In this document: positions 1-43,508 of the stretch, one piece after another
How positions within the stretch are numbered: the stretch's first letter is position 1
Layout of the letters: the number at the start of each line of letters is the position of its first letter
Origin: a virus
Lineage: Duplodnaviria > Heunggongvirae > Uroviricota > Caudoviricetes
DNA: 64,000 bases
Reading direction: 5' to 3' (one strand)
Virus record (IMG/VR): IMGVR_UViG_3300026097_000001
Notes under the pieces: generated by a model
Told to the model about the DNA's origin: nothing
Database searches by the model: none
Seen by the model: only the letters and a program-made list of their open reading frames with translations
Translations under genes and position numbers: made by a program

Positions 1-41
1 CCCAGTGTTAGTGCTGTTAGTACTGTTAATAGTCTCATCGT

Positions 42-233
42 TTACCCTCCAATATAGATTTCGTTCTTTGGCCTGTACCAGTTTTTCTGGTGAAAGATCC
101 TAGCTTTCAGATCCTCGATTTCTTGAACCTCAAACCCTACAGCACCCATTCTATGATGCTGTAGTAGTGTAAGGCCTTCTTCTATTAAGTTAATGTCATT
201 AACATTAAGCTCAAACTGCGTATTTGGTTTCAT
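42..233 (-). CDS. hypothetical small protein
   Basis: 63-aa ORF in the gene-dense minus-strand array; no recognisable motif. Confidence 0.3.
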   Translation of the reverse strand: MKPNTQFELNVNDINLIEEGLTLLQHHRMGAVGFEVQEIEDLKARIFHQKNWYRPKNEIYIGG

Positions 234-339
234 AGTCTCATGCCCGTGTTGTCTGAGTCTTTAGGTTCTTTCACCCAAGCATACGCGATCATACCTGCCA
301 TAAAGCCATACACCATTACAAAGTATAAGGCAGTGGCGA

Positions 340-750
340 TCATGTCCTATTGCCTCGTAGAGCAAAGTACATGCCGCCTACCCAGAGTAAGACGTGAAAG
401 TTATCATACAGCAATACGTATGTAAAACTCTCAGGCTCGCCTACCCAGATAACACCAGTCATGATACCAGTAATAACGATTCCAGAGAAACGTGTAATGA
501 GATCACCCAACTCTTTAAATCGTTTAGTATAGTCCAAGAGACCACCGACAACAAGGCCAACTGCTCCACCGATTTCTCCTAGTACAACAAATGTCCATAC
601 TAAAAGAGTAAGCCCAAACGCTTCTGCCATACCAGCATCGATCGGCCATTTGTCAAAGCCCTGTTGCAAGAATACGACAATCAAAGGAATGCGAATAAGC
701 CAATGACTCATGCAAAACTCTGGTATCTTGTTTACAAATTTCTTAATCAT
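340..750 (-). CDS. integral membrane protein (DoxX-like)
   Basis: 136 aa with four hydrophobic helices; glycine-rich TM segments resemble the DoxX family. Confidence 0.4.
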   Translation of the reverse strand: MIKKFVNKIPEFCMSHWLIRIPLIVVFLQQGFDKWPIDAGMAEAFGLTLLVWTFVVLGEIGGAVGLVVGGLLDYTKRFKELGDLITRFSGIVITGIMTGVIWVGEPESFTYVLLYDNFHVLLWVGGMYFALRGNRT

Positions 751-1011
751 TGCCTAAAACTCCTACTTGCACTCCGGCCTGCCTCGTCTATCGCATTATG
801 CCACAGTGCAGTTTCTAAATTGTTGATTCTGCTGTTAACGCTGCTGGTAGTAGTTGAACAAGAAGCACCGACAAGCAAAAAAGATGCAACGCAGATATAT
901 GTAAGATATTTATTCATTAGTCATGTTCTCCATTTTGTAATACTTTATTATCTACCAGTTACTTCTGGCAAATCTTTAGCCCAGGGGAAAGGTTTGAATT
1001 CCATTAATTTT

Positions 1012-1419
1012 TTACTCATGTTCTCCTCCAGGATCTTTAGAACTCAATTCAATTAGCTCTCCGTTGATCCACATAGTTTGGCGAGTGCGACTTACCGAGT
1101 GATATCCTGGGCGCAAGTTAAAATTTGGTTTTGCCTTCTCGGCTTGGCGAAACGTTACCGCCGTAATCACGACGCCACTGATAAACATCGCGTGTAGAAA
1201 TGCACTTACTCCAAATGCAATATAGCTTCCGAGCATTGCGGCAAAAATTCCACTCCAGATAAAGGCAAGAACTTGAAATATCATATGAGCTACCATAGGA
1301 TCAAAGTTCTTAAGAGGGGAATTTTCGATCGTCATGACAGTATTCCACATTTCCCTCGGCATTGCGCTAAGTTCTGAAATGGTATTCATCAGTCCAATAG
1401 ACTTATATTTATATTCCAT
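1012..1419 (-). CDS. membrane protein
   Basis: 135 aa with 2-3 predicted TM helices; start overlaps the stop of the upstream gene. Confidence 0.4.
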   Translation of the reverse strand: MEYKYKSIGLMNTISELSAMPREMWNTVMTIENSPLKNFDPMVAHMIFQVLAFIWSGIFAAMLGSYIAFGVSAFLHAMFISGVVITAVTFRQAEKAKPNFNLRPGYHSVSRTRQTMWINGELIELSSKDPGGEHE

Positions 1420-1727
1420 TATGCTTCCTTATTTTCAATTTGATTTGAGACAGGAACCATTACAGCTTCTGCAAATCCCATAAATTCTTCGTTGCGAGCA
1501 GCTTCTTCCATTAAATTCGAAGCATGAAAGATGCGCGCCAGTTTGTTAAAATCTTTCTTTGGTACGTTTACCTTTTCGAGAATAGTTTCAGCAATTTCTT
1601 TTTGTAGATCCTTTTCTGCAGAGATACGAGTCATTGAGTCAGACATTTCTCGTAGAGCGTCCTGGATGATTTTTCGATCGTGGTCTGTAACCGTTGAAGG
1701 GAGTGACTGCGGTGTTTGGGTATTCAT
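1419..1727 (-). CDS. hypothetical protein
   Basis: 102-aa charged/helical ORF coupled to its neighbours. Confidence 0.35.
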   Translation of the reverse strand: MNTQTPQSLPSTVTDHDRKIIQDALREMSDSMTRISAEKDLQKEIAETILEKVNVPKKDFNKLARIFHASNLMEEAARNEEFMGFAEAVMVPVSNQIENKEA

Positions 1728-2167
1728 AATGTTCCTTCTTCTCTCATTCGTTTTCTTATTTTAGTTGCGCTTATACTATGTATTGTATCACCAAGATCGT
1801 GTTCTGTCAAGGTATATCCTACACCGCGGCCGTAACTAATATCTACAATATTAGGTACAAACATTATAATATATTCTTCACGGAGCGTAAAGCCCGCGCT
1901 TGCTAATCCTTTTTCAATATTCATAGATACAGTATGGCAATCAAATGGATTATCGTCTTGCGGTGTTGTGCGTCCGGCACCTGCGTCTTCGCCAACGATA
2001 CCGCCTACATCACGAACCATAATACAAACTTGACCTGTTTCTGCAAGTGCTTTTTTAAATAGTTCTGTATGACCGTCGTGCCAAGGTTGCCATCTACCAA
2101 GCATTTGAACTGTTGGTTTTTGATAATCAAACATCGTTATGTATCCTAATATGACGCTCAACAGCAT
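1724..2167 (-). CDS. NadM-type nicotinamide-nucleotide adenylyltransferase-like nucleotidyltransferase
   Basis: GRWQPWHDGH (HxGH nucleotidyltransferase motif) and C-terminal ISATKIRKRM (ISxTxIR motif) align with archaeal/phage NMNAT; true start is probably the internal MFDYQ. Confidence 0.6.
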   Translation of the reverse strand: MLLSVILGYITMFDYQKPTVQMLGRWQPWHDGHTELFKKALAETGQVCIMVRDVGGIVGEDAGAGRTTPQDDNPFDCHTVSMNIEKGLASAGFTLREEYIIMFVPNIVDISYGRGVGYTLTEHDLGDTIHSISATKIRKRMREEGTL

Positions 2168-2555
2168 TTGCTAAAGTTTCGTCTGTGTTATCAAACCACT
2201 TAGTTACATGATAATCTACTTTATTTGGTTTTTGAAACATGCTATTCGTATCACTAAAACGACCTTTTTCGATAGTATCCATCCAAACGGTGTAGTCAGC
2301 GTTGAAGATATCACGTGTTTCTTCAAGTGGGCATACGAAGTCGCATATGACAGTGCGTTTCATTTCTAATTCAAAATCTGCTAATGATTTCATACGATAC
2401 GCTTGGCGAAGTCTAGCAGCTTCACTAAACTCCCAATCGTTGGCCATGTGTCTAACTGTGTCTGCGTTAAACCAGGCACAATTAAGACGAGCCTGGAGTC
2501 GTTCAGCTAACCAAGTTTTACCGGAACCGGGGAGTCCCATAATTAGAATCTTCAT
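2127..2555 (-). CDS. P-loop nucleotide/nucleoside kinase, possibly ribosylnicotinamide kinase
   Basis: Walker A motif MGLPGSGKTW at the N-terminus; 142 aa; overlaps the NMNAT gene by 41 nt (NadR-like split arrangement). Confidence 0.5.
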   Translation of the reverse strand: MKILIMGLPGSGKTWLAERLQARLNCAWFNADTVRHMANDWEFSEAARLRQAYRMKSLADFELEMKRTVICDFVCPLEETRDIFNADYTVWMDTIEKGRFSDTNSMFQKPNKVDYHVTKWFDNTDETLANAVERHIRIHNDV

Positions 2556-2569
2556 TATATAACCTCAGA

Positions 2570-2926
2570 TTAATCTTTTACTAGTTTTATAATTCCAAAA
2601 ACATTTGTCAATAAAAAAATCGCGGAGTGTGCAAACATAAATCCAGAAAAAACCGTATATCCTAACGTATACACGTGGTAAGATGATGCTAAGTATAGAA
2701 TGGCAATGAGCACTGAAAGCGAATAGTTGCCAGTTTCTTCATCCGGTTCAGAACCAACTAGGCCAGAAAATAAACTCGATGCCGCGATTGATTGCATAAA
2801 CGCGATGTAGCCAATCATTCCCATCACAGGATACATTGCCCAATCTATTCCGTAGGAAGAAGCATATAAAGCAGCGCATTGTATTAGCGCATTTATGACG
2901 GCAGACGGCGCAGTGTTTGAAAACAT
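2570..2926 (-). CDS. membrane protein
   Basis: 118 aa, 3-4 hydrophobic helices. Confidence 0.4.
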   Translation of the reverse strand: MFSNTAPSAVINALIQCAALYASSYGIDWAMYPVMGMIGYIAFMQSIAASSLFSGLVGSEPDEETGNYSLSVLIAILYLASSYHVYTLGYTVFSGFMFAHSAIFLLTNVFGIIKLVKD

Positions 2927-2938
2927 TATATATTACCT

Positions 2939-4138
2939 TTATTTGGTTAAAACTTCTTTTAGTGCAGTTACCAGTTCCATCATCATTACATCTGTATGAT
3001 ACGGTGTAGGTGCTATCCGAAGTCTTTCTGTTCCAACTTCTACAGTTGGGCTATTGATTGCTTGTATGTATATTCCATACTCATTGAGTAGTCTATCGCT
3101 TGCTTCCTTTGCCTTAAATGCGTCGTTAACCATGACTGGGACAATATGAGTACATGCGTTTGGGTGTACTGGTATATCGTACTCTTGCAACATTTGTTTG
3201 AGTTTCTTGGCTTTCGATTGATGTTCGTCTCTTAAAGATGAATGATCCTTGAGGTAATTTATAGAGGCGAGAGCCCCTGCGCATAATACCGGTGACATAC
3301 TAGTGGTAAAGATAAATCCACTTGCAACAGATCGAATAGCATCAACAATTTCTTTATTTGCCGCAATGTAACCTCCTTGAACTCCAAATGCTTTTCCTAG
3401 AGTTCCGTTAATTATGTCTATATCATCGGCCCATAGGTTGAGTTCTTCACACATTCCTCCACCATGTTTACCGTATAATCCAACCGCATGAACTTCGTCA
3501 ATGTAAGTTAGAGCATCATACTTCTTTGCCAACGCAACGATATCTTTAATTGGACTTACATCCCCATCCATACTATAGACGGACTCAAAAACGATAACAG
3601 GATTTAGTTTTTCTTTTACGGCATTCTTTAACTGAGTCTCCAGATCTTCCATATCGTTATGTTGAAATACTTTCTTCTCTGCTCGAGAATGTTTCATTCC
3701 CATAATTAAAGAAGCATGGTTTTTATTATCTGAAATGAAACAAATGTCTGGTATGATGCGTGATAGTGCAACTAGCGACCATTCGTTTGCAACATACGCG
3801 CTTGTGAATAGCAACGCTCCGCTTCTACTGTGTAGTGAGGCCAACTCACGCTCAAGAGTTACATGATAGTGAGAAGTACCACCTATGTTTCTCGTTCCAC
3901 CGGATCCTGCGCCGGTTTGGTCAAGAGCTGTATGCATAGAGTCGATCACGAACCGGTTCTGTCCCATTCCTAGGTAATCGTTTGAGCACCAGTTAATTAT
4001 GTTCTTTGGCGCATACTTACCATACCATATAGATCGAGGAAAGTTACCACGTTCTCTCAGTATATCGTTGAAGACTCGGTAACGCCCGTCGTCTTTAAAG
4101 TCCTTTATGGTCTGATTGAAGTATTCTGAGTATTTCAT
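2939..4138 (-). CDS. hemA: 5-aminolevulinate synthase (class II PLP aminotransferase, Shemin pathway)
   Basis: 399 aa with [28 protein letters not shown] and the PLP-lysine region TLGKAFG, all characteristic of ALAS/KBL/BioF-family enzymes and best matching ALAS. Confidence 0.8.
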
Positions 4139-4144
4139 AGCTGT

Positions 4145-4200
4145 GCCTTCGCAAACAAATGTTAAATAGCTTGTATAAACATATATTTATTTGCGAAGGC
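4145..4200 (-). promoter_or_regulatory. RBS-sequestering hairpin with AATAAATA box at the 5' arm/loop junction, in the ALAS leader
   Basis: 11-bp perfect IR gccttcgcaaa/tttgcgaaggc with a 34-nt loop; the 3' arm carries SD AAGG 7 nt before the hemA ATG; the minus-strand loop begins TAAATATATG. Confidence 0.55.
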
Positions 4201-4202
4201 TT

Positions 4203-4304
4203 TCTTTAGATATGAACGATACCCAATGGATCGACAAAGATAAGGATGGACGCTATAGCCAATCCAATGACTATAGCAAAAGTTGTGTCCGTAATATTAG
4301 GCAT
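4203..4304 (-). CDS. possible 33-aa hydrophobic peptide (not in the ORF track)
   Basis: ATG at 4304..4302 then MPNITDTTFAIVIGLAIASILIFVDPLGIVHI; single TM; lies between the DUF932 gene and the ALAS leader. Confidence 0.2.
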
Positions 4305-5247
4305 CGGCCATCTCCAGTGCAAGATCCAAGGCGTCAACCTTGCGCTTTGCGTTTCCACCGAACCAGGCAGAAGCCATACGAGTATCGGCAGAACGACCCA
4401 GTTTATGGTCAGTCATATATGTAACCGCGTTGTATGCGTTCCACCATGTTCCTGGAGCAAAGTGATCGCCTGGTTGGTCCTCAACGATTGACATTGCTTC
4501 TTTTGCGTTACGAGCAAGTTCTTCTTTTTCTTTTGAAGATTTGCCGAATACAACGCCAAAGAACTGAGTCAGTTGCTCATCGGTGTAACGCTTTGATCCA
4601 AGGAACTCTGCGGCTTCTTTGAACTTCTCGACCTTGTTGTGACCGAGGCCAAGGATTTCCTTGACGCGACCCGCATCGAATACCGAGCGGTGGTTGACGC
4701 GAACAGAAGGTTGACCTGCTTCGTTAAGAGCAACTGCGAGTGTGTTGTTACAGACTACGCGTTCCATGACGAACTTGATGTCAATAGACTTACCATAGAT
4801 ATGTGGGTTGGAGAACAGGAGGTAACCTTTTACTTCATCACCATTGAACAGAGAAAATCCATCCTTAACATCTGCAAGAGCCCAGACTAACCGGCCATCC
4901 TTAAGAGAACCTGCAGTATCCATGATCATGTCGCCACCGGATACAAATTCATTAAAGAACTCAAAAGCTTCTTCATTTTGAACTGGGTTCCAACCTGGTC
5001 CTACTTGCGTAAGGATCTTTCCGTCAGTAGAACGAACCAACGCTTGTTGTCCGGTCGCAACGTTATCGCCTTTGTAGCGAATAAAGGTATCTACCTTTTC
5101 CACTCCCCAATCGAGGCCTGCTGCCTCCATCATTTGTTGAGGAGTCATGTCGTCTCCAACTGGAGTACCAAGACCATGCCAAGGAAGTCCTTTGCTTTCA
5201 CGGTATGCCATCTGTGCTTCACCGTTAACGATCTCAAGTTCGTGCAT
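4297..5247 (-). CDS. DUF932 phage/plasmid-like protein
   Basis: 316 aa opening MHELEIVNGEAQMAYRESKGLPWHGLGT, typical of the DUF932/TIGR03299 family found in phages and ICEs. Confidence 0.6.
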   Translation of the reverse strand: MHELEIVNGEAQMAYRESKGLPWHGLGTPVGDDMTPQQMMEAAGLDWGVEKVDTFIRYKGDNVATGQQALVRSTDGKILTQVGPGWNPVQNEEAFEFFNEFVSGGDMIMDTAGSLKDGRLVWALADVKDGFSLFNGDEVKGYLLFSNPHIYGKSIDIKFVMERVVCNNTLAVALNEAGQPSVRVNHRSVFDAGRVKEILGLGHNKVEKFKEAAEFLGSKRYTDEQLTQFFGVVFGKSSKEKEELARNAKEAMSIVEDQPGDHFAPGTWWNAYNAVTYMTDHKLGRSADTRMASAWFGGNAKRKVDALDLALEMADA

Positions 5248-5285
5248 TTTATATTTCCTTCAGTTTGTTTTCATCTGATATAAAC

Positions 5286-5314
5286 AATATAACTGATTCT
5301 AAACGAAATGTCAA
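5286..5314 (-). promoter_or_regulatory. early promoter cassette (sigma70-like TTGACA-17-TATATT)
   Basis: Minus strand gTTGACAtttcgtttagaatcagtTATATTg; member of the reiterated ~45-bp family; upstream of the DUF932 gene. Confidence 0.6.
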
Positions 5315-5332
5315 CAACTTTTTTCGTTTAGA

Positions 5333-5530
5333 TTAAGAATTTTCAACTCGATCACGTTGCATCTGAACGATCATTTGTAGTTCGGCATTCTCTGCTTTTT
5401 CTTGCAGTTCATCTGCGAGGTCCATGATTTTGAACGCAGGTATCTTTGAGTTAGGCCCATCAGTGCTACGAATTAGTTCACGTAGTTTTTTCACCATTTC
5501 ATAGTATTCAATCATAATGTATCCTTTCAT
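5333..5530 (-). CDS. hypothetical protein
   Basis: 65-aa ORF directly behind an early-promoter cassette. Confidence 0.35.
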   Translation of the reverse strand: MKGYIMIEYYEMVKKLRELIRSTDGPNSKIPAFKIMDLADELQEKAENAELQMIVQMQRDRVENS

Positions 5531-5541
5531 TTGATATAATT

Positions 5542-5570
5542 ATACTACACTGATTCTAAACGAATGTAAA
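5542..5570 (-). promoter_or_regulatory. early promoter cassette, variant (TTTACA-17-TAGTAT)
   Basis: Diverged copy of the conserved cassette with the same leader tcatttgatataat; upstream of 5333..5530. Confidence 0.45.
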
Positions 5571-5578
5571 GGAAAAAG

Positions 5579-5878
5579 TTAGTGGATCTCAGTAGAAATC
5601 ATTTGAATGGAATCTATCATGGCATGAGTATACTTTGCGTATCCGTTCTTCAATAGCTCAGTAACGTCTATATACTTGTCGTTTGTAGCTATCTCTATAA
5701 CAAAGAAGTTCTTTTCGTCGCCATTCATATATTCGTCTATGAACTCTTGTGCGTCTCTCTTCGTCTCAAAACTAAACGCCTTTGACAGACCAAAGACGTC
5801 ATTCTTTGCGAATACTCCATGATTCTTAAACGCGCCCAGGAAGAAACCAAGATCTTCTTCAGCTATCGTATACCGCAT
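5579..5878 (-). CDS. hypothetical protein
   Basis: 99-aa ORF in the early operon. Confidence 0.35.
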   Translation of the reverse strand: MRYTIAEEDLGFFLGAFKNHGVFAKNDVFGLSKAFSFETKRDAQEFIDEYMNGDEKNFFVIEIATNDKYIDVTELLKNGYAKYTHAMIDSIQMISTEIH

Positions 5879-5903
5879 CCAATTTACCTTTCAGTAGTTA
5901 ATC

Positions 5904-6461
5904 TTAAGCAGCAACTTCAAACCATTCCGGTACTTCTCTTTTTGTCCAAGCCATTTTAAAACGATGTTGCTTTGTTTGATAAAATTTTCTGTAGGACTCG
6001 ACTATATTATTTGGATCCATGCATTCTGGGTTTGACGTCATGGCAAGAGGTTGAGGAGTCATAGGACCGACTGGAATATTCTCAGGCAAAGCTTTGAGAA
6101 CATCGCGCAGTTGCGTATCGGTTGCATGGACCCTTTCATATCGGTATTTATATTCGTCGCAAAGTGCAGCAAAGTGGATCCAATGCCAGTTGTAGTTGTT
6201 GTTTGATTTCATAGTCCATACACTACATGGATGGTACATATGAACAGCCTTGTATAAAGTGTTCTCGCGCCAGTCTGGCATCCGCCAGTATTTAACGATG
6301 GTCTTACCGGACTTTGACGGCCTTCGCTCTAGATCTCCGTCTAGCATACGGTGAGCCGTTGATAACATCTGTGCTGATTCTACGATCATTTTCACGATAT
6401 GAGTATTGCACTGCAGTTGCGCAGATATCACCGGGTCCTTATCTAATATGAATATGTTCAT
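5904..6461 (-). CDS. conserved phage protein, function unknown
   Basis: 185 aa; N-terminal MNIFILDKDPVISAQLQCNTHIVKMIVESAQMLSTAH looks like a recurrent phage family I cannot name with confidence. Confidence 0.4.
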   Translation of the reverse strand: MNIFILDKDPVISAQLQCNTHIVKMIVESAQMLSTAHRMLDGDLERRPSKSGKTIVKYWRMPDWRENTLYKAVHMYHPCSVWTMKSNNNYNWHWIHFAALCDEYKYRYERVHATDTQLRDVLKALPENIPVGPMTPQPLAMTSNPECMDPNNIVESYRKFYQTKQHRFKMAWTKREVPEWFEVAA

Positions 6462-6646
6462 TACTTTACACCAAGAATTCCTAGCTCAACCGATTTGATA
6501 TGATTACATTTATATATCATTCTCTTCATACAGGTACACGAAAAACCGTCGTCACTCATCGTTACCTCGCAGTTACGAAAGGGCCATGATACTCCATTAA
6601 AAATATGATTTACGGTGTTAATGTATTTAGATTCAAAATACTTCAT
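6461..6646 (-). CDS. hypothetical Cys-rich small protein
   Basis: 61 aa; start/stop overlaps with both neighbours. Confidence 0.3.
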   Translation of the reverse strand: MKYFESKYINTVNHIFNGVSWPFRNCEVTMSDDGFSCTCMKRMIYKCNHIKSVELGILGVK

Positions 6647-6647
6647 C

Positions 6648-6953
6648 TTATGCCATTACCTTTTCGTACCAATCCGGGTTCTTATCTTTGAGGATAGCTA
6701 CTGGAGCCATTCCGAACATGTAAGCATTTGCATAATCTTCGACCGTATGGTTTGCAATCAGCTCTTTGAGAAACTTAGCCTTTGTGATAGGACCTTTATG
6801 CTTAAAGCGCGCAATGAAAAGATCGATGCCGGTACCAACACGACTTGGGTGAACACCTGGTTTGTCTTCATAAACAGGGCGACCTTCGTAGTCACCAGTA
6901 TATGTGAGGTATCCACCGTGGTACGAGAATTTTGTTTTGTCAAACTTTGTCAT
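6648..6953 (-). CDS. hypothetical protein
   Basis: 101 aa; first gene behind the early promoter at 6981-7009. Confidence 0.4.
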   Translation of the reverse strand: MTKFDKTKFSYHGGYLTYTGDYEGRPVYEDKPGVHPSRVGTGIDLFIARFKHKGPITKAKFLKELIANHTVEDYANAYMFGMAPVAILKDKNPDWYEKVMA

Positions 6954-6980
6954 GTTAGTTTCCTTTCATTTGATATAATC

Positions 6981-7009
6981 AATATAACTGATTCTAAATG
7001 AAATGTCAA
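6981..7009 (-). promoter_or_regulatory. early promoter cassette (TTGACA-17-TATATT)
   Basis: Full consensus copy; the TGA stop of the 7006..7677 gene lies inside the -35 hexamer; followed by the leader GATTATATCAAATGAAAGGA and the ATG of 6648..6953. Confidence 0.65.
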
Positions 7010-7677
7010 CCGTATTCATACATCTCTTTGTATTTTTTTCTTACTGAAAGGAAATGCTGCAGGTAATCATATGTGTTTACTTTAAATATCTGTGGTTCAG
7101 AACCGTCTACGGTAATTAGAATAACACCCTGTTTGATCGCTACACCGGTTCTTTCGTAGAAGGCTGCAGCATAGAAGGCCGCTTGGATGAAGTAGTTCGT
7201 AATCCATTCCTTCTTCTTTGGTTTACGAGAAGTCTTAAAGTCAATGATAGACAGTTCACCCTCGAACTCTGCGATACAGTCTACCTGACCAGCGCATTTA
7301 AGACGGTCACTATACAGAAAGGTCTCCTGCATCCATATGTTATCTACCTTTTCGTCAAGAACGTCTTTTAACTGGCCGAACGAAAATAGGTTGGCCGGCA
7401 TATGACCTTTTTGCCAATCGCTCTCGTTGTTTAAATAATCTTCGGCGAGTTTGTGAACAGCAGTACCACGTGTTGCGGCCTGAGTAGAGATCCTATTTGC
7501 CTCTTCCTCGCCTACGCGTTTACGCCATGCCTGAATTGAATCTTTGCCAAGGATAGACAGTACCGTTGTGATAGAAGGGTACGCGTTTCCTTCAGGAGTG
7601 TAATACTTTCTCCCAGTTTCTGTAGTCTTTCGAGTAATCTCTGGAAGAGTTATTCCGTGGTCTTTGTGAGTAAACAT
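7006..7677 (-). CDS. PD-(D/E)XK nuclease (Cas4/YqaJ-like exonuclease)
   Basis: 223 aa with D...EFEGELSIIDFKTS (D-ExK motif) and C-terminal QAAFYAAAF. Confidence 0.6.
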   Translation of the reverse strand: MFTHKDHGITLPEITRKTTETGRKYYTPEGNAYPSITTVLSILGKDSIQAWRKRVGEEEANRISTQAATRGTAVHKLAEDYLNNESDWQKGHMPANLFSFGQLKDVLDEKVDNIWMQETFLYSDRLKCAGQVDCIAEFEGELSIIDFKTSRKPKKKEWITNYFIQAAFYAAAFYERTGVAIKQGVILITVDGSEPQIFKVNTYDYLQHFLSVRKKYKEMYEYG

Positions 7678-7705
7678 ATCTATATTCCTTTAGTAATCTT
7701 TTCTA

Positions 7706-7734
7706 TAGTATACTAATATGAAAGAAATGTCAAC
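7706..7734 (-). promoter_or_regulatory. early promoter cassette (TTGACA-17-TACTAT)
   Basis: -35 at 7729-7734; upstream of the PD-(D/E)XK nuclease gene. Confidence 0.5.
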
Positions 7735-7739
7735 CGTTA

Positions 7740-9527
7740 TTACCCTCTTCGTCGTATACGAGGCCTTGGATAAACTCTCCTGCCGACTGTAGCAGGCGGT
7801 GGATCATCTCCTGCAAGGAGGGCATTCGCGCTCCAATTCGAAGGTATGGGATCTCCGTTGAGGGTTCGCGGCCTAAAATTTCTTGGAGGAAACATAGTAC
7901 GCCCAATAGGTCTTTGATTGATCCATTTCGCGAATCTGTTAGGAGCACCTTGTAAGCTTTGCTCATCCATTGCATCGTCTGTTCCAGTATCACTTAGCGC
8001 ATCTTTAGTCGAAAAATCGATAATCCATTGGTGCGCTTGAGCTTGGGTCATGTTAGGCCATGTTTCAGCGAGGCATGCTAGCATTCCAGCTACTTGAGGA
8101 GTAGCCATGCTCGTTCCTTGCGTTTTCGCAAGGTAGTGTGCCCCACCAGAACGAGGGTCTTGTATAGTCCCAAAATATCCACCTGCATGTACACTACTTT
8201 GCACTGTAGAGCCAACGGCAAACACGTCAACGCCGTTTCCGCAATTACTGAAATCACTCTTGTATTCTTCTTTCCATGTCCCAACGGATCCTACTACTAG
8301 AACCGGTGCATATGCTTGGCCCGAGCGGCCTCCGCCACCTCTTTGATAATAGTTTTTATAGGTTTGACCAGTTGGAAGATAGGTTACCTCGAACTCGTTG
8401 TTATAATCCACGTGGCCCTCTTGGACTTGCTTCCATCCCTCGTTACCAGCAGCGGTACAAACGATTATCCCATCGGCCATTGCATCTTGCAAATCTGCCT
8501 GCTGCGAGATCGAGTAATTTTGAAAACCAAAGCTCTGGCTGCTAGTTTTAAACCCTCTTGCCTGAAGTTCAGCAACAGTAAGAGCGCGCCCAGGTGCATA
8601 CCTGACCCCACGATAGGTGGCGGCATAGATTTGGCTAAAATTACCTTGCCCAACTGAAAGAAACGCACCGTAGCTATGATTTGATACAGTAGGATTTTTT
8701 CTACCAGTCACTGGATTAATTGGCTTTGAATTATGCCAAGCTCTTACGTAATCCCACATCGTGGTATCGTCATACCCGCACACTCCCCAGTTTGCAGTAC
8801 TCGGAAAGGCGCCTAAGCTATATACATTTGCATCTCTGGCCCAACCTTGGTTATTGCCTGCCGCGATCCCTCCAACGTGTGTCCCGTGATTACTTTGGTT
8901 AGCCAAACCATATTGGTACGTACCAGTCCCAAATCCTACATCATTCTGAAACCAATTGTACGCAACACATCTAGTCCCACCGCTTCCGTCACGATTTGCT
9001 GCAAACTCTGGGTGCGTCTGGTCCAAATGCTCGTCTACAATTAAAACGTCAACGTTTCTTCCGGATGCTGTTACGATTACATTATTATCTGCCGCCAACA
9101 GTTCAGATTCGGCTGCATTTGCATTATTTGGGTCTTGTGGTAAAAAGTTATCAAATCCCCAATTTGCCGGCGGAGTATTTCTGTTTTGGCGTAAAAGACC
9201 CCAGTTCACGTCAACCTGAGAAAGCGCTGGCCCGGACGTGAATACGTTTTTAGAAAAAACACCCTCATCTATTTTATATCCTAACGGCCGTAACGAATTT
9301 ACTACTATGTCATAAAGTTCTACGCCCCAAACTCTTTCATCGTTTTTTACTAACATTGCTTCTTCGTAAGTAAGCATGTAATGAGTATTTCTACTCGTAG
9401 GCCTTTGCGCCGAAACATCAACGGCTCTATCCGGTATATACAAAGCTCCACCAGGGGTTTGCATATCATCATAGAAATCATCTAGTTGGTTGCGATCATA
9501 GAGAGTAACTATCCATTCTCTTAACAT
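7740..9527 (-). CDS. subtilisin-like serine protease (peptidase S8)
   Basis: 595 aa with catalytic Asp (VLIVDEHLD), His (HGTHVGGIAAGN), oxyanion Asn (SNHSYG) and Ser (GTSMATPQVAGMLA); start is 3 nt after the collagen-like gene. Confidence 0.75.
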   Translation of the reverse strand: MLREWIVTLYDRNQLDDFYDDMQTPGGALYIPDRAVDVSAQRPTSRNTHYMLTYEEAMLVKNDERVWGVELYDIVVNSLRPLGYKIDEGVFSKNVFTSGPALSQVDVNWGLLRQNRNTPPANWGFDNFLPQDPNNANAAESELLAADNNVIVTASGRNVDVLIVDEHLDQTHPEFAANRDGSGGTRCVAYNWFQNDVGFGTGTYQYGLANQSNHGTHVGGIAAGNNQGWARDANVYSLGAFPSTANWGVCGYDDTTMWDYVRAWHNSKPINPVTGRKNPTVSNHSYGAFLSVGQGNFSQIYAATYRGVRYAPGRALTVAELQARGFKTSSQSFGFQNYSISQQADLQDAMADGIIVCTAAGNEGWKQVQEGHVDYNNEFEVTYLPTGQTYKNYYQRGGGGRSGQAYAPVLVVGSVGTWKEEYKSDFSNCGNGVDVFAVGSTVQSSVHAGGYFGTIQDPRSGGAHYLAKTQGTSMATPQVAGMLACLAETWPNMTQAQAHQWIIDFSTKDALSDTGTDDAMDEQSLQGAPNRFAKWINQRPIGRTMFPPRNFRPRTLNGDPIPSNWSANALLAGDDPPPATVGRRVYPRPRIRRRG

Positions 9528-9530
9528 TTA

Positions 9531-14747: not shown

Positions 14748-14783
14748 TAAGGAGTTCCTCTTAAATTAATTCTTAAATTCATA

Positions 14784-15941: not shown

Positions 15942-16201
15942 TACGTAGTTTCCCCTTCGTCACTATAATATAGACCAACGTAGGCTGCATAGAGTCCTAA
16001 TGTTTCTGGACCATACGGCTGATAACCTGGGTTAGGTACAACATAATCATCTTCCAAGTACGAGAATAATATCTTTTCATCGCCGGTGATATCGTCAAAT
16101 ACGAATTGAAAGCAGAGTTCAATTAGACGCTGTTTCTCAACAGGATCCTGTTCAGCTGCAATTTGTACGAGCAGATCTTCATAATTTGGTTTCGTACTCA
16201 A
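15941..16201 (-). CDS. hypothetical protein, possibly a fibre-assembly factor
   Basis: 86 aa; overlaps the fibre gene start. Confidence 0.35.
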   Translation of the reverse strand: MSTKPNYEDLLVQIAAEQDPVEKQRLIELCFQFVFDDITGDEKILFSYLEDDYVVPNPGYQPYGPETLGLYAAYVGLYYSDEGETT

Positions 16202-16203
16202 CT

Positions 16204-16512: not shown

Positions 16513-16518
16513 AATAAT

Positions 16519-16553: not shown

Positions 16554-16562
16554 ACCCTACAT

Positions 16563-38883: not shown

Positions 38884-39306
38884 TTACTTCAACCAACCAA
38901 TTTTTTCACCTGTCTCAATTCTTCGCTCGGCTTCTGCCTGAGAACCAGGGTAACGCCATGCCCAAGTTACGATAAAGGCAAAGGTAATCGCAAGGTATAG
39001 CGTTGCCATTGGATTGCCTGTTCCAAAGTACATAAACGCGAGCGAGGTTGACATGACGGCTACCATGAGCCATTTTGCCTTCGTTGGATATACTCGATAC
39101 TTGGACCAACTCTTTACGAAGGGACCGAACCGAGGGTGGTTCATAATCCAATTGTGGAACTTATCGCTTGACTTTGCGAAGCAGAACGTTGCACCGAGGA
39201 TAGGAGTACTCCAAGGTAGACCTGGAAGAAATACTCCGAGATACGCCACTCCTACAAGTATCATACCAAGAACAAACCAAAGAGATTTCTTTATGTTTTT
39301 TGTCAT
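38884..39306 (-). CDS. DUF454 (YbaN-like) inner-membrane protein
   Basis: 140 aa; LPGLPWSTPILGATFCFAKSSDKFHNW pattern and 3-4 TM helices. Confidence 0.45.
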   Translation of the reverse strand: MTKNIKKSLWFVLGMILVGVAYLGVFLPGLPWSTPILGATFCFAKSSDKFHNWIMNHPRFGPFVKSWSKYRVYPTKAKWLMVAVMSTSLAFMYFGTGNPMATLYLAITFAFIVTWAWRYPGSQAEAERRIETGEKIGWLK

Positions 39307-40520: not shown

Positions 40521-42215
40521 TTATGCCTCGCAAGCTGCACAATCATCAGACATTACACGTTTACGAGTCAAAGACTGTGCTGCAGACATGGAGTAGCTAT
40601 AGTACAGACTCTTTACGCCAACGCCATGAGCATATAGATACAGCTGATTGATTTCTTTTACCGACATGTCAGGATCCAACATTAGGTTCAAACTCTGACC
40701 TTGGTCGATGTATTCCTGGCGAACGCCTGCTTGGTCTACGATGGTATATGGATTAATCTCAGAGAAGGTCTTAAACACTTCTTTTTCTTCCTGTGTAAGG
40801 AACTCAAGATGTTGAACGGAACCATCGCGGTTCTTGATTGACTCCCACGTATCGAGGTTATCCTTACCCTTTTCTTGAAGCAACTTCGTAAGATAAGGGT
40901 TCTTAATCGTAACCTTAATCTTTGCAAGATCCTTTACATATGCGTTCGAGAACTCTGGTTCGATAGACTGAGATACTTGACCAAGGATAAAGCTACTTGA
41001 CTTTGTAGGTGCGATAGCCATCGTTGTTGTGTTACGCATACCGTAACCTTCTAGTAACGGAGCTTCACCAAGGATCTCGGCTAACTGTCTTGACGCAGCA
41101 TGCGATCTCTCACGAAGGTTTTTCGCAATCTCTAGGTTCTTTTGCGCTGCTTCTTTTGACTCAAAAGGAATCATTTTTGACTGTAGGTATGAATGCCAGC
41201 CAAGGATACCTGCGCCAAGAGCCCTGTGATTGATAGCAAAATCACGAGCGCGTTTCATATAGATCTGACCCTCAGTCTTATTGATAAATTCCTGACATAC
41301 CGTGTCAAGGAACATAGTAAGTACTTCAATCGCGTCGGTCTCTTTGATCTCGTCCCAATGCAAAACGTTAAGAGACGATAGTACACATGTAAAGGTTTCA
41401 TCTACACTCGATGGCAGAGCGATCTCAGCACACATATTTGATGCGTGAATATCCATACCCTTGTCTTTATAGACCTGCGGTTTATTGTTGTTTACGTTAC
41501 CTTTGTATAGGATATAAGGAAAACCAATCTCAGAACGGCGCTGAAGTACCTTTGCCCACAGAGATCTTTTTTCTCCGTCTCCGGATTTCATATCTTCAAT
41601 GAATTGGTCCGAAACAGTAATACCGGTCGTTAGACCCTGGATAGGGTTACCTTCCGTACCGATGTCTAGGAACTCGCTTGCGTCAGGATGTTCAATATCT
41701 TGATACGCAGCAAAGAAGCCACGACGGACGGATCCTTGCGAAACTACAGAAGCAAGCGTATCATACATCTGCATAAAGTGAACAGAGCCAGATGATTCTC
41801 CTTGGTCTTTGATTGGAGCTCCTCTTTCACGAACAGCTCCAAAGTAGCCAGATGTTCCACCACCATTCTTCATGAGCATGCCGTTTTCAGCGTGGCCAAA
41901 TAGAATGGACTGCATACTATCATCAATAAACGATCCAAAACAAGAAACTGGTAGTCCTCGTTCCTTACCATAGTTAGCCCAGATTGGAGACGCTAGAGAA
42001 TAAAATCCTCTTGCCATGTAGTCATAGAACTTGTCTGCAAACCCATCAAACTTGCTTCCTGCTTCAGGAGTCGCAGCCATATCCTTAAGGTACTGCTCTG
42101 CTTTGTCTGCGATCTCACGTATACGACCTTCAGGAGTTTCACCGTTGTCAGTATCAATATATCCTCGTGACAAAAATGTGCGTGAGTCTTCGTTTAGCCA
42201 ATAAAATTTTTCCAT
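40521..42215 (-). CDS. nrdA: ribonucleotide reductase class I large subunit lacking an ATP-cone
   Basis: 564 aa; no N-terminal ATP-cone; conserved RNR alpha core; C-terminal CAACEA redox tail. Confidence 0.8.
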   Translation of the reverse strand: MEKFYWLNEDSRTFLSRGYIDTDNGETPEGRIREIADKAEQYLKDMAATPEAGSKFDGFADKFYDYMARGFYSLASPIWANYGKERGLPVSCFGSFIDDSMQSILFGHAENGMLMKNGGGTSGYFGAVRERGAPIKDQGESSGSVHFMQMYDTLASVVSQGSVRRGFFAAYQDIEHPDASEFLDIGTEGNPIQGLTTGITVSDQFIEDMKSGDGEKRSLWAKVLQRRSEIGFPYILYKGNVNNNKPQVYKDKGMDIHASNMCAEIALPSSVDETFTCVLSSLNVLHWDEIKETDAIEVLTMFLDTVCQEFINKTEGQIYMKRARDFAINHRALGAGILGWHSYLQSKMIPFESKEAAQKNLEIAKNLRERSHAASRQLAEILGEAPLLEGYGMRNTTTMAIAPTKSSSFILGQVSQSIEPEFSNAYVKDLAKIKVTIKNPYLTKLLQEKGKDNLDTWESIKNRDGSVQHLEFLTQEEKEVFKTFSEINPYTIVDQAGVRQEYIDQGQSLNLMLDPDMSVKEINQLYLYAHGVGVKSLYYSYSMSAAQSLTRKRVMSDDCAACEA

Positions 42216-42227
42216 ATTCTTCTCTCT

Positions 42228-43508
42228 CTAAAATAGGTCGTCTTCTGTGAATGCTTTTGTCTTCTTTGAATACGCGGTCGAGCGTTTTACAAAAAAGTCT
42301 ACGTTTTTCGTACTTAGGATCTCTTCTGCAAACCAGTCGGTTGTGCGTACCTTTTCTTCATCTACTTCATAGATTGGTTTAAGGTCGATCGCAGTGAGTG
42401 ATTGGTTAAAACGGTGCTTAAGGAACTCCTTAACAGTATCCTTTGGAAGGAAGTCGAGATCGCTGTTTCCATAGATCCAATCGACAATTGCAGACTCTGC
42501 TTTGTATGCTTCACGACACAGTCTGTTTACCTCGTTGATTGAATCCTTATTGAACCAATCTGGGTTTTCCTCGCGGATAATGTTTACGAGTTCGAAACCA
42601 AAACGCGCGTGAATGTCTTCTTCTTTTGATGTTGCTTCGACAGCGTTTGAGATACCCTTAAGAACGTTCTTATGTTTATTGAATGCCATCATAATAAGGA
42701 ACTGTGAGAATAGAGATACATTCTCTACAAACATCGAGAAAAGAATGATCTTATGGAAGTAGTCCTTGTCATCGACCGGTGTTCCGATAGATTGCTCGAG
42801 GTATGCAATACGCTTTTTCATTGCCGGTACTTCTACTACCTTTTCAAACTCTTCATTGAGTCCCATGATCTCGATTAGGTTTGAATATGCGTCGGCGTGT
42901 CTTACTTCTGATTCGCCAAATGTAATACCGACAGCGGCAACCTCTGGTTTTGGGAACTTATCGCCAATCTTTGCCCAGAATGTTTTTACTGCAACCTCGA
43001 TCTGAGAGATCGCAAGCATAGCTTTCTTTACGATCTCAACTTCTTCAGGAGTCATACGGACCTTCATATCCTGAATATCAGCTGAGTAGTTAAATTCTGT
43101 ATGAACCCAGTATGAGTGACGAATAGCATCTGTGAACTCTACGAGCTGGGGGTACTCATAAGGTTTTAGGTTCGAGCGTTTACGAAAGATGTTCGGCATG
43201 TTATTAAAACGAAAAAGGATATACTCGCGAGCGAGATCGTGAAGACCCATATCCATGATTACGTTTTCGACTGCTTTATGAACGGTGTCAACATCTGCTA
43301 CCACATCATTCACGTCTTGGTTTAAAAGATTAGATACATCAGTTGCAACTTCGCTAGGTAGAGTTCTGCTCTTTATGCCGATGGATTTCATCGCCTTTGA
43401 AACGGCCGTTTGTATTTTACTAACATTAAATTCTTCGGTAGAACCATCACGTTTTAAAACGTAACTGACAGTTTTTGGATATTCTGGAGTCAAAGAACCT
43501 TCGAACAT
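42228..43508 (-). CDS. nrdB: ribonucleotide reductase small subunit with N-terminal ATP-cone fusion
   Basis: 426 aa; residues ~10-95 are an ATP-cone (VSYVLKRDGSTEEFNVSKIQTAVSKAM); the rest is a diiron-tyrosyl R2 with ESEVRHADAY and SKEEDIHARFGFE ligand motifs. Confidence 0.8.
   Translation of the reverse strand: MFEGSLTPEYPKTVSYVLKRDGSTEEFNVSKIQTAVSKAMKSIGIKSRTLPSEVATDVSNLLNQDVNDVVADVDTVHKAVENVIMDMGLHDLAREYILFRFNNMPNIFRKRSNLKPYEYPQLVEFTDAIRHSYWVHTEFNYSADIQDMKVRMTPEEVEIVKKAMLAISQIEVAVKTFWAKIGDKFPKPEVAAVGITFGESEVRHADAYSNLIEIMGLNEEFEKVVEVPAMKKRIAYLEQSIGTPVDDKDYFHKIILFSMFVENVSLFSQFLIMMAFNKHKNVLKGISNAVEATSKEEDIHARFGFELVNIIREENPDWFNKDSINEVNRLCREAYKAESAIVDWIYGNSDLDFLPKDTVKEFLKHRFNQSLTAIDLKPIYEVDEEKVRTTDWFAEEILSTKNVDFFVKRSTAYSKKTKAFTEDDLF

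Follow-up and report, generated by a model that had tools for sequence, protein, structure and literature searches.

The locus at 2939-4138 of a 64,000-nucleotide stretch of virus DNA, referred to here as the window, raises three questions: whether the open reading frame encodes a 5-aminolevulinate synthase (ALAS) or a sister enzyme of the same fold, whether the gene belongs to a phage, and how its expression might be controlled. The preliminary description had read it as a phage-encoded ALAS that suggests an alphaproteobacterial host, with a late-on hairpin switch in its leader. The gene is designated valaS, and the features that bear on it are collected in Table 1.

Table 1. Features of the window that bear on valaS
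Feature	Coordinates	Strand	Description
T4 DsbA-like late-transcription accessory protein	1419..1727	minus	PF11126 Phage_DsbA, E 3.6e-10
118-aa hydrophobic protein, 12 nt after valaS	2570..2926	minus	Downstream neighbour in 15/15 clade loci
valaS, predicted 5-aminolevulinate synthase	2939..4138	minus	ATG-to-stop ORF, 399 aa, PLP-lysine Lys249
16-bp RNA hairpin	4145..4200 (RNA 4200..4145)	minus	dG -23 kcal/mol, z -5.1
T4-type late-promoter -10 motif AATAAATA	4184..4191	minus	Consensus TATAAATA; top of hairpin 5' arm
Micro-ORF, 32 aa MPNITDTTFAIVIGLAIASILIFVDPLGIVHI, single hydrophobic helix	4206..4304	minus	ORF in all clade lineages
DUF932 / phrog_1221 protein, 316 aa, upstream of valaS	4297..5247	minus	PF06067, E 1e-38; phrog_1221, E 1.9e-67
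DUF454/YbaN-family membrane protein	38884..39306	minus	PF04304, E 2.2e-27
nrdB (42228-43508) and nrdA (40521-42215), operon	40521..43508	minus	phrog_84 and phrog_86

Enzyme family and active site

In a profile search the valaS product matched TIGR01821, the NCBIfam equivalog model for ALAS, with 558.7 bits against a cutoff of 338.55 (E 6.7e-168), residues 1-398 aligning with model positions 1-395 of 402. Sequence matches in the PDB included 7x98 (E 1.9e-126) and 2bwn (E 1.9e-115); the top five were all ALAS (E 1e-126 to 1e-104), with Kbl at 7e-58. The AF2 model of the protein (pLDDT 77.6, pTM 0.81) was compared with the PDB by Foldseek, and ranks 1-30 were all ALAS with TM of about 0.80-0.82, Kbl and BioF being first seen at rank 31. 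The top match was again 7x98, the housekeeping HemA of R. palustris. Confidence in the model was low in residues 18-47, 78-87 and 274-279, which are, in our reading, dimer-interface and active-site parts, predicted here for a monomer with a shallow alignment as input. The preliminary description had specified in advance that best matches and active-site residues agreeing with BioF or Kbl would speak against its assignment; this check was run and came out for ALAS. The profile score, the structural comparison and the conserved active site described below clearly point to an ALAS rather than BioF, Kbl or SPT, and the assignment is upheld.

All 20 of the catalytic, PLP and substrate positions checked were conserved in the window protein, among them R21, N53, T82, N84, I85, S136, H141, K155, E185, S189, D214, H217, T246, K249, T278, T279, T365 and R374. 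These residues were essentially invariant among 118 viral relatives, and the PLP set (K249, H141, D214, H217, T246, S189 and T278/T279) was invariant. In the R. capsulatus enzyme we take the PLP-binding residues to be H142, D214, H217, T245, S189 and S277/T278 (2BWN structure), the glycine carboxylate contacts to be N54 and R374, the succinyl-CoA carboxylate and CoA contacts to be R21, T83, N85, I86 and K156, and T365 to be a residue of the gating loop (Astner et al. 2005). The window protein has the equivalents of the substrate contacts and of the gating loop residue in N53, R374, R21, T82, N84, I85, K155 and T365. The PLP lysine of R. capsulatus is K248 (PMC11480375). Compared with the bacterial HemA/AlaS proteins (R. 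capsulatus 2BWN; R. palustris 7X98), the window protein is about 50% identical over the full length, has the same fold and shares all catalytic, PLP, glycine and succinyl-CoA contacts. Enzyme activity is predicted from homology to the tested vAlaS of phage CB_2, for which ALA synthase activity and rescue of a 5-ALA auxotroph were shown (PMC11480375).

The window protein differs from R. capsulatus AlaS in being phage-encoded and in lacking the haem-feedback site. The residues responsible for haem feedback in R. capsulatus AlaS are His342 and Cys400 (PMC11480375). Position 342 is Lys in the window protein and in 118 of 118 viral relatives, and the window protein ends in ...TALKEVLTK without a Cys; a C-terminal Cys is also missing from 115 of the 118 relatives. 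Since both R. capsulatus feedback residues are missing, the product is predicted to be insensitive to haem.

Phage origin, host and relocation of the gene

The window encodes the T4-like markers DsbA, RnlA, Dda, NrdAB, RNase H, gp61 primase, Td, Frd, PhoH and SegE, and by this gene content it is from a T4-like phage, an uncultured myovirus. A search of IMG/VR gave 291 matches. Phage genes flank valaS on both sides, on the same strand and with tight spacing, and this synteny is repeated in independent assemblies from different samples. The DUF932 gene is the upstream neighbour in all 14 of the 14 clade loci that have upstream sequence. The DsbA-like gene is part of the conserved neighbourhood and is syntenic in lineages L081, L105-L107 and L112, and in relatives the syntenic block is adjoined by gp23, portal, sheath, prohead protease and other structural genes. 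The GC, GC3 and codon usage of valaS are typical of the phage genome. The flanks, markers, recurrent synteny and composition together confirm the earlier statement that the gene is phage-encoded.

The proposed host did not fare as well. A megablast search of window positions 1-20000 against 50,697 GenBank phage records gave no match, and therefore no close cultured relative is indicated. A tblastn search of the ALAS against the same records returned only Kbl/BioF at no more than 35% identity, from contaminated or transducing records. A tRNA scan found none. The nearest isolates are Sinorhizobium phages of the phiM12 group at only 47-51% identity, a likeness that is weak evidence for a host. 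The GC content is about 41%, which we take to be a poor fit to the ranges of both SAR11 and Roseobacter. The suggestion of an alphaproteobacterial host, such as SAR11 or Roseobacter, is not supported. The accompanying premise that hosts using the C5 pathway would not need an ALAS is also unsupported, since one valaS phage is predicted to infect a gammaproteobacterium and reasons have been given why a C5 host benefits (Wegner et al. 2024, PMC11480375).

In relatives at 74-84% identity valaS stands at the 3' end of the nrdB-nrdA operon. In 31 loci nrdA precedes valaS at a distance of 1-7 nt, and DUF454 directly follows valaS in 70 of 91 related loci, overlapping it by 4 nt in L113. In the window the DUF454 gene is 35 kb from valaS, near nrdA, and its place is taken in the clade of the window by the 118-aa protein, which has no Pfam match. 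Descent of this protein from a diverged DUF454 was ruled out (BLASTP E 1.4; hhalign probability 0.13%). Comparison of gene order indicates that in this clade valaS has moved from an nrdB-nrdA-valaS-DUF454 operon to a late-gene region near the structural genes. A search for hemO and pcyX (PF01126, PF05996) gave no match in ORFs of at least 95 aa in the window, which is 64 kb of a roughly 201-kb genome, and with the same profiles no hemO or pcyA/X was found within 10 kb in L112 or L113. The window valaS is a solo gene, with no hemO/pcyX cassette within 64 kb.

Two other origins for the protein or its gene were weighed against this evidence. All alpha-oxoamine synthases share PLP fold type I and PF00155, the window protein is about 30-35% identical to BioF, Kbl and SPT, and its secondary matches are strong (BioF 4e-95, Kbl 6e-92), so that a BioF/AONS, Kbl or SPT, or a cyclising ALAS of C5N secondary metabolism, had to be considered; the scores nevertheless make such an enzyme very improbable. 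The sister models fall 110-150 bits or more under their own cutoffs (BioF 318.6 versus 426.45, Kbl 308.4 versus 460, SPT at most 235 versus 500), whereas the ALAS model is 220 bits above its cutoff. The ALAS match takes in the ALAS-specific N-terminal segment with Arg21, which BioF, Kbl and SPT lack, whereas BioF and Kbl matches start near residue 45; the contacts for succinyl-CoA and glycine are also conserved. Formation of the C5N unit needs an acyl-CoA ligase and an amide synthetase as partners, and genes for neither are nearby; since, in addition, the best structural match is a housekeeping HemA, the cyclising enzyme was rejected. It is just as hard to credit that the gene is bacterial, derived from host DNA co-assembled with the phage or from a mis-called provirus region. 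Relatives at 66-84% identity are indeed filed under Rhodobacteraceae, Saprospiraceae, Vibrio and Polynucleobacter MAGs, among others, and the 'Rhodobacteraceae Water-Bin34' AlaS, 84% identical and the sole clade member in the alignment of Wegner et al. 2024, was treated there as bacterial (PMC11480375). The taxonomic scatter of these labels indicates mis-binning, and the Rhodobacteraceae contig is itself phage DNA, since its NrdB, NrdA, valaS and DUF454 match the window phage at 81-85% identity. The same-strand phage flanks, the synteny in independent assemblies and the phage-typical composition of valaS likewise argue against a bacterial gene. A pattern-based GTDB scan for the nearest cellular ALAS returned only phage-like mis-binned contigs and Kbl/BioF at about 33%; viral AlaS has been reported as about 55% identical to that of Pelagibacteraceae (PMC11480375).

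Leader hairpin, late-promoter motif and micro-ORF

The hairpin of the preliminary description exists, but the 158-nt gap at 4139-4296 in which it lies is not all leader. Because the micro-ORF occupies the part from 4206 on, the non-coding leader is 4139..4205 (67 nt). The arms of the hairpin are GCCUUCGCAAAUAAAU on the 5' side (4200-4185) and AUUUGUUUGCGAAGGC on the 3' side (4160-4145), and the Shine-Dalgarno sequence GAAGG is within the 3' arm, 7 nt before the AUG. None of 200 shuffled sequences folded as well. For the Shine-Dalgarno window the mean unpaired probability was 0.155 in the long transcript; in the short one it was 0.50, which equals the median of 106 genes. Relatives of at least 91% identity keep the hairpin, with wobble-compatible changes; in relatives of 85-90% the lower stem is lost though the ATAAATA motif stays. 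In a covariation analysis 89.6% of the cells were paired, a level reached by 58 of 500 shuffles, and only two pairs change on both sides.

The motif AATAAATA at 4191-4184 takes in the final bases of the 5' arm. Its ATAAATA core is invariant in 11 of 11 aligned leaders, in a region that averages 65% identity. In coding-strand intergenic DNA there are 9 copies of ATAAATA versus 2.6 expected, a count reached by 3 of 2000 shuffles, and its reverse complement shows no intergenic enrichment. The octamer TATAAATA occurs 10 times versus 4.6 expected, with 9 of the 10 on the coding strand. The leaders carry AATAAATA or GATAAATA, which begin with A or G rather than T and are not the exact T4 octamer. 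ATAAATA is present in three of the seven most Shine-Dalgarno-sequestered genes among the 106 (hypergeometric p = 0.03). The combination of hairpin and motif recurs at two further genes of the window, 16204-16512 and 62838-63092; at the former, 13 of 13 pairs are kept with three double-sided changes in three lineages, a comparison of three sequences only. A scan for sigma-70 promoters and terminators around valaS gave chance-level counts. Rfam returned nothing for the leader at E<=1 or for the whole window at the gathering threshold, and thus no known riboswitch, whether for glycine, cobalamin or another ligand, is indicated.

In T4 the leaders of gene e (lysozyme), I-TevI and mobE have a late promoter inside a hairpin that sequesters the ribosome-binding site (PMC3014915). 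The window leader resembles these in having (T/A)ATAAATA in the DNA for the 5' strand of the hairpin and the Shine-Dalgarno sequence in the 3' strand, and transcription beginning at the motif would yield an RNA without the 5' strand of the hairpin, as in gene e. It differs in that the octamer starts with A or G, that a micro-ORF ends just upstream, and that the gene is a metabolic one in a distant T4-like lineage. By this model, the 16-bp hairpin would form in long read-through transcripts and bury the Shine-Dalgarno sequence, while transcripts from the late promoter, (A/T)ATAAATA within the 5' arm, would be missing that arm and would be translatable. Expression of valaS may accordingly be late. 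The late-on switch is supported in silico only: the hairpin exists, its geometry fits T4 gene e and the architecture recurs at two other genes.

The micro-ORF allows a different function for the hairpin. Its ATG overlaps the DUF932 stop codon, its peptide core ...LLILIDPL... is conserved across the clade despite divergent DNA, and its own stop is 5 nt before the 5' arm in the window and L105-L109, with distances of 10 nt in L107 and 14 nt in L110. A perfect 9-12-bp hairpin within the micro-ORF differs in sequence in each lineage; the reading of this first hairpin past the DUF932 stop as a plain intrinsic terminator was set aside, since the structure is conserved but is within a conserved micro-ORF. 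A ribosome ending at the micro-ORF could melt the CCUUC anti-Shine-Dalgarno sequence, with valaS translated from the same long mRNA, in which case valaS expression would track that of DUF932 and the micro-ORF. Such translational coupling is possible but rather unlikely. The conserved peptide, the overlapping start and the 5-nt distance to the stem are in its favor, as is the location of the anti-Shine-Dalgarno sequence at the very bottom of the stem, within reach of a terminating ribosome. The variation in stop-to-stem distance counts against it, and coupling leaves the invariance of ATAAATA unexplained; moreover, it is not a general explanation because the hairpin at 62838-63092 is about 70 nt past the nearest upstream stop. 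Coupling and the late-on switch are compatible and not mutually exclusive.

Taken together, valaS very probably encodes a working PLP-dependent ALAS that is predicted to lack haem feedback. It is a viral alaS auxiliary metabolic gene of an uncultured T4-like myovirus, was relocated from the nrd operon and is apparently gated in the manner of T4 gene e. The enzyme would supply 5-aminolevulinate, the precursor with which the synthesis of haem and related pigments begins, free of feedback by haem, and would presumably benefit the phage.

Relation to published valaS and significance

Chen et al. 2020 (bioRxiv 10.1101/2020.02.13.942896) had listed ALAS for large freshwater phages, and viral AlaS (vAlaS, encoded by valaS) was characterized, including complementation of E. 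coli, by Wegner et al. 2024 (PMC11480375). The novelty implied in the preliminary description therefore does not hold; phage ALAS is already known as a gene type, and the window copy adds a member. It belongs to the same enzyme family as the valaS of Wegner et al., from T4-like or large aquatic phages, with the PLP-lysine and substrate sites conserved and His342/Cys400 lost in both, a loss that is frequent in the group and not a strict requirement. Individual genes without a hemO-pcyA/X cassette are also known there, and the window GC of about 41% resembles that of their freshwater contigs (37.5-41.7%). The order DUF932, micro-ORF, valaS and 118-aa protein near the capsid module is a different position, and leader regulation, nrdA linkage and a DUF454 partner are not discussed by Wegner et al. 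2024. The window contig, its sample and its peptide are absent from their supplements.

New as far as found, and of modest weight, are the mobility of valaS among related genomes, out of the nrd operon and into a capsid-proximal late region, the small membrane protein, usually DUF454, that almost always follows valaS, and the promoter-in-hairpin leader in the style of T4 gene e at valaS in the clade of the window. Late expression is not general to valaS, because most other lineages fuse the gene to the nrd operon without a promoter of its own. A bolder proposal, which we regard as improbable, is that valaS and DUF454 make up a two-gene module that is conserved in uncultured aquatic T4-like phages and that cultured phages lack. 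In the clade of the window this module would have been split, and valaS, formerly part of an early/middle nrd operon, would have become a late gene under translational gating, beside another small membrane protein and a conserved 32-aa membrane micro-peptide. Papers on DUF454/YbaN gave neither an established function nor a link to haem. If the module is true, the enzyme would act together with a membrane protein dedicated to it, which might, for example, handle or export 5-ALA or porphyrins. If the late rewiring is true, synthesis of tetrapyrrole precursors would be wanted specifically late in infection, and such timing could hold porphyrin phototoxicity down until lysis, or else make use of it.

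The valaS of the window confirms and slightly extends the published class of phage auxiliary metabolic genes, and recognition of the 'Rhodobacteraceae' bin clade as a T4-like phage lineage removes the sole exception in the published split between viral and bacterial sequences. If the late gating is real, it provides a testable handle on when the phage wants tetrapyrrole precursors, and a classic T4 translational device would serve metabolic genes in distant environmental T4-like phages.

Identity of the valaS product

The preliminary description had placed a phage 5-aminolevulinate synthase (ALAS) gene, here valaS, at 2939-4138, and an ATG-started open reading frame of 399 aa was found to occupy exactly those positions on the minus strand. 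The minus strand holds nearly all genes of the 64-kb window in tight packing, with GC at ∼41% throughout, and valaS is a genuine, long frame that lies in register with the adjacent genes. The deduced protein aligned throughout with the NCBIfam equivalog model for ALAS, TIGR01821 (558.7 bits against a trusted cutoff of 338.55, E 6.7e-168), whereas the models for BioF (318.6 bits, cutoff 426.45), Kbl (308.4 and 256.8 bits, cutoffs 460 and 493) and serine palmitoyltransferase (SPT; at most 235 bits, cutoff 500) all scored below their own cutoffs. Pfam returned the generic PF00155 alone. The top five matches among PDB sequences were ALAS, from R. palustris (7x98, E 1.9e-126), R. capsulatus (2bwn, E 1.9e-115), human (ALAS2) and yeast; the best Kbl followed at 6.9e-58, and the Kbl and BioF alignments begin only near residue 45. 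Given this ranking and the late start of the alignments, assignment to BioF or Kbl, the alternative named in the preliminary description, is therefore rejected; the active site does not fit those subfamilies either. A cyclising ALAS was also ruled out as the identity of the top match, since 7x98 is annotated as HemA of R. palustris.

The window protein, 50-51% identical to the two solved bacterial ALAS (R. capsulatus and R. palustris), was aligned with the R. capsulatus sequence and 118 relatives. All 20 catalytic, PLP-binding and substrate-binding positions checked are kept, and they are essentially invariant in the viral clade. The PLP Schiff-base lysine, Lys249, corresponds to K248 of R. 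capsulatus; also conserved (window numbering) are His141, Asp214, His217, Thr246, Ser189, Thr278/Thr279, Asn53, Arg374, Arg21, Thr82, Asn84, Ile85, Lys155 and Thr365. The roles of the checked residues other than K248 are those in the 2BWN structure. An AlphaFold2 model built on a 32-sequence alignment (pLDDT 77.6, pTM 0.81) has low-confidence stretches at residues 18-47, 78-87 and 274-279, and in a Foldseek search of the PDB the first 30 chains were ALAS, with Kbl, BioF and SPT ranking below them. The protein has Lys at 342 and no C-terminal Cys, so the copy appears to fit the heme-insensitive pattern. The role of K248 and the heme-feedback role of His342 and Cys400 are those given by Wegner et al. 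(Nat Commun 2024, PMC11480375), who found the catalytic residues of valaS conserved and His342 and Cys400 often lost. Overall, these comparisons indicate that the gene almost certainly encodes a functional phage ALAS.

Phage origin and gene neighborhood

Phage ALAS is an already known kind, since Wegner et al. reported valaS in contigs of marine as well as freshwater phages, in some cases on its own and in others with hemO and pcyA/X, and ALAS was listed among genes of large freshwater phages by Chen et al. 2020 (bioRxiv 10.1101/2020.02.13.942896). Neither the window valaS sequence nor its sample is in the supplements of PMC11480375. Heme oxygenase and ferredoxin-dependent bilin reductase domains were absent from window ORFs of at least 95 aa, and thus the gene is classed as an individual valaS within these 64 kb of the ∼201-kb source contig; neither enzyme was found within 10 kb of valaS in two relatives.

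Location on a phage genome, as first proposed, was confirmed by T4-like genes, synteny in independent assemblies and genome-typical composition. Besides the primase, the window encodes a T4 DsbA-like protein, RnlA, a Dda-like helicase, NrdA/NrdB, a PD-(D/E)XK exonuclease, T4-type RNase H, a SegE-like GIY-YIG endonuclease, thymidylate synthase, DHFR, PhoH and a PNKP-type phosphatase. The block of DUF932, valaS, a small membrane protein, a kinase-like protein and DsbA recurs in independent assemblies from other samples, where it runs into a convergent T4 structural module (gp23, scaffold, prohead protease, portal, tail tube and sheath), and 291 stretches in IMG/VR encode valaS relatives. The GC content of valaS is 0.405 (z -0.19), with GC3 z -0.44 and a codon-usage similarity rank of 36 of 42. 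No close cultured phage was found by megablast; the nearest relatives of the window RNase H and primase are in the Sinorhizobium phiM12 group (51% and 47%, respectively). Elsewhere in the window, the collagen-repeat protein and the adjacent subtilase-domain protein probably form a collagen-like fibre with an associated protease or chaperone domain, and the glycan cluster may make a nonulosonic-acid-type sugar.

Neighboring genes were surveyed by tblastn with all window proteins against 96 valaS loci. Of the 91 loci in which sequence downstream of valaS was available, 70 have a DUF454/YbaN-family membrane protein as the adjacent gene, independently of the upstream neighbor (nrdA in 31 loci, DUF932 in 14, a homologue of 25113-25379 in 13). 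The downstream gene of the window clade (15 loci) is not DUF454 but a 118-aa hydrophobic ORF, and sequence comparison ruled out that the two are related. In an 80% relative (locus L113), valaS and DUF454 overlap by 4 nt in the order nrdB-nrdA-valaS-DUF454. In the window, nrdB, nrdA and DUF454 remain together at 38.9-43.5 kb with valaS 35 kb off, an arrangement most simply explained by a move of valaS in the window clade. Conservation in the phage DUF454 clade (69-94%) is similar to that of valaS, and both genes are absent from cultured phages, contaminated records aside. DUF454 looks like a conserved functional partner of viral ALAS. The literature gives no function for DUF454, no mention of such a partnership was found there, and Wegner et al. 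mention neither DUF454 nor nrdA. The gene that follows just outside the window, to the left of position 1 (5276-5375 of the related contig L081), encodes a plastocyanin/azurin-type Copper-bind domain (PF00127) and is possibly another auxiliary metabolic gene, for electron transport.

Features of the window
Position	Strand	Feature
1724-2555	-	142-aa P-loop kinase resembling adenylylsulfate kinase (PF01583, E 3.6e-7), syntenic with valaS in most of the clade; overlapping 147-aa ORF, no Pfam match; just downstream of the valaS block
2570-2926		118-aa hydrophobic ORF
4206-4304	-	32-aa micro-ORF
7740-9527	-	595-aa protein, subtilase (S8) domain; phrog_9158, weak tail-fibre match; GC 0.47-0.50 with the next, above the rest
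9531-14747	-	1738-aa protein, nine collagen triple-helix repeat stretches
16513-16560	-	switch-like leader of ORF 16204-16512
26688-27818, 30155-30619, 34076-34426, 37304-37615	-	scattered RNA-repair-type set: RnlA-like RNA ligase, PNKP HAD phosphatase domain, cyclic-phosphate-processing receiver domain (cREC_REC), Nlig-Ia ligase N-terminal domain
31574-32422	-	SPFH/Band-7 (prohibitin-like) membrane protein, phage-encoded
37653-37660	+	TATAAATA, 255 nt upstream of the next gene
37915-38424	+	169-aa CHAP-domain peptidoglycan hydrolase; sole clearly coding plus-strand gene
38884-39306	-	DUF454/YbaN-family membrane protein (PF04304)
45032-46045		gp61-type primase; tblastn matches annotated DNA primases of T4-like phages; no Pfam match
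52020-62570	-	large glycan-biosynthesis cluster: 756-aa cytidylyltransferase/DUF5824 protein, GT8, short-chain dehydrogenase-like ORF, GDP-mannose 4,6-dehydratase, DegT-type aminotransferase, several family-less ORFs
54334-54894, 54891-55400, 62013-62570	-	three GT29 (sialyltransferase-like) paralogues of the cluster
63093-63150	-	switch-like leader of ORF 62838-63092

Bacterial labels and the host

The only member of the window clade in the alignment of PMC11480375 is 'Rhodobacteraceae_Water-Bin34', described there as the sole bacterial sequence clustering with phages. Its contig (L082, FZLS01000020.1, 'Rhodobacteraceae bacterium Water_Bin34') is most likely a mis-binned phage contig, since its NrdB, NrdA, valaS and DUF454 products are 85, 83, 84 and 81% identical to those of the T4-like window. 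Other valaS relatives (66-71% identity) are in MAGs labelled Saprospiraceae, Vibrio, Neomarinimicrobiota, Crocinitomicaceae, Flavobacteriales and Polynucleobacter, and seven MAG contigs other than L082, from unrelated phyla, carry the same valaS-DUF454 pair. This scatter of labels argues for mis-binning over a host signal.

An alphaproteobacterial host had been proposed on the ground that hosts with the C5 pathway would not need ALAS. That reasoning was not upheld, since a valaS phage in PMC11480375 is predicted to infect a gammaproteobacterial methanotroph, and the authors name benefits for a C5 host as well: a single gene does the work of two, no glutamyl-tRNA is drawn off, and the pathway escapes feedback. 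As to the window phage itself, the likeness to the phiM12 group is distant, the MAG labels are in conflict, and the window has no tRNA genes.

The valaS leader

Upstream of the valaS AUG, in gene orientation, are GCCUUCGCAAAUAAAU, a 24-nt loop and AUUUGUUUGCGAAGGC-ACAGCU-AUG. This leader is predicted to fold into a 16-bp hairpin (-23 kcal/mol, z -5.1; none of 200 shuffles as stable) in which the Shine-Dalgarno (SD) sequence GAAGG, 7 nt before the AUG, is paired with CCUUC at the stem bottom. The top of the 5' arm is AATAAATA, one base off the T4 late-promoter consensus TATAAATA. No Rfam family matched the leader or any other part of the window. The ribosome-binding sites of T4 gene e and I-TevI are buried in a hairpin of long early transcripts, and late promoters in the DNA for the 5' strand of that hairpin give transcripts that lack the strand and are translated (review, PMC3014915). 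The valaS leader is alike, with the motif in the 5' arm and the SD in the 3' arm. Long valaS transcripts would bury the SD in the hairpin, and a late start at ATAAATA would remove the 5' arm and leave the SD free.

The consensus TATAAATA occurs 10 times in the window against 4.6 expected, nine of them on the coding strand. Intergenic DNA contains nine coding-strand copies of ATAAATA, where shuffling within segments predicts 2.6, and nine was reached in 3 of 2000 shuffles. The reverse complement is not enriched there, and 12 of the 22 coding-strand copies sit 17-54 nt upstream of a start codon. The core is invariant in 11 aligned valaS leaders (relatives of 85-100% identity) in a region of 65% mean identity. 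The computed unpaired probability of the valaS SD window is 0.155 in the long transcript versus 0.50 in one starting after the motif; valaS is the seventh most SD-sequestered of 106 genes, and three of the top seven have an upstream ATAAATA (hypergeometric p = 0.03).

Two further leaders in the window, those of 16204-16512 and 62838-63092, are laid out like that of valaS: an anti-SD arm comes first, then (A/T)ATAAATA, then a loop and finally the SD arm. In the former, 13 of 13 pairs are held in three lineages (100, 92 and 85% identity), with all three variable pairs altered on both sides and TATAAATA and AGAGG unchanged. Relatives of the latter (50-53% identity) read CCTAAT-AATAAATA ... ATTAGGAG, which by its layout is the same leader logic in a different sequence. 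For valaS itself, 89.6% of the compared cells pair, a value matched by 58 of 500 shuffles, and only two pairs change on both sides. Only relatives of at least 91% identity retain the full stem, with one mismatch and with substitutions that turn G-C or A-U pairs into G-U; at 85-90% identity its lower part is missing. Thus, of the late-on hairpin switch suggested in the preliminary description, the hairpin, the motif and the burial of the SD were recovered in silico, but pairing as high as that of the valaS stem is also reached by some shuffles. A switch in the valaS leader is plausible on these predictions, and the chances that translation is gated to late transcripts appear evenly balanced.

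Translational coupling offers another explanation for the same hairpin. The 158-nt gap between DUF932 and valaS contains a micro-ORF, MPNITDTTFAIVIGLAIASILIFVDPLGIVHI, with an ATG that shares bases with the DUF932 stop codon (ATGCCTAA). An ORF of 26-32 aa with a conserved hydrophobic ...LLILIDPL... core is present at this site in every lineage of the clade although the DNA has strongly diverged, and each lineage has a perfect 9-12-bp hairpin inside it, different in sequence each time; about six synonymous and three non-synonymous differences, counted by eye, separate the window from a 96% relative. In the window, 5 nt separate the micro-ORF stop from the stem that sequesters the SD, and a ribosome terminating there could melt the anti-SD and tie valaS translation to translation upstream. 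However, this spacing is wider in two relatives (10 and 14 nt), and no stop codon lies close upstream of the 62838-63092 hairpin. Coupling is therefore placed second, as a rather unlikely explanation, after the late-on mechanism, with which it may coexist.

The valaS leaders in IMG/VR fall into 42 distinct types. In ∼17 of these the gene is fused to nrdA at a spacing of 1-7 nt and has no promoter of its own, and in ∼9 an ATAAATA stands 18-55 nt upstream; of the latter, only some (L001, L033 and L046) sequester the SD in a way that a late start would undo. The candidate switch is thus a feature of the gene-expression style of the window lineage and not of valaS generally. The new context for viral ALAS is modest, and consists of the apparent relocation of valaS, a putative conserved membrane-protein partner, a candidate promoter-in-hairpin leader, the micro-ORF, and correction of a 'bacterial' sequence that was most likely mis-binned.
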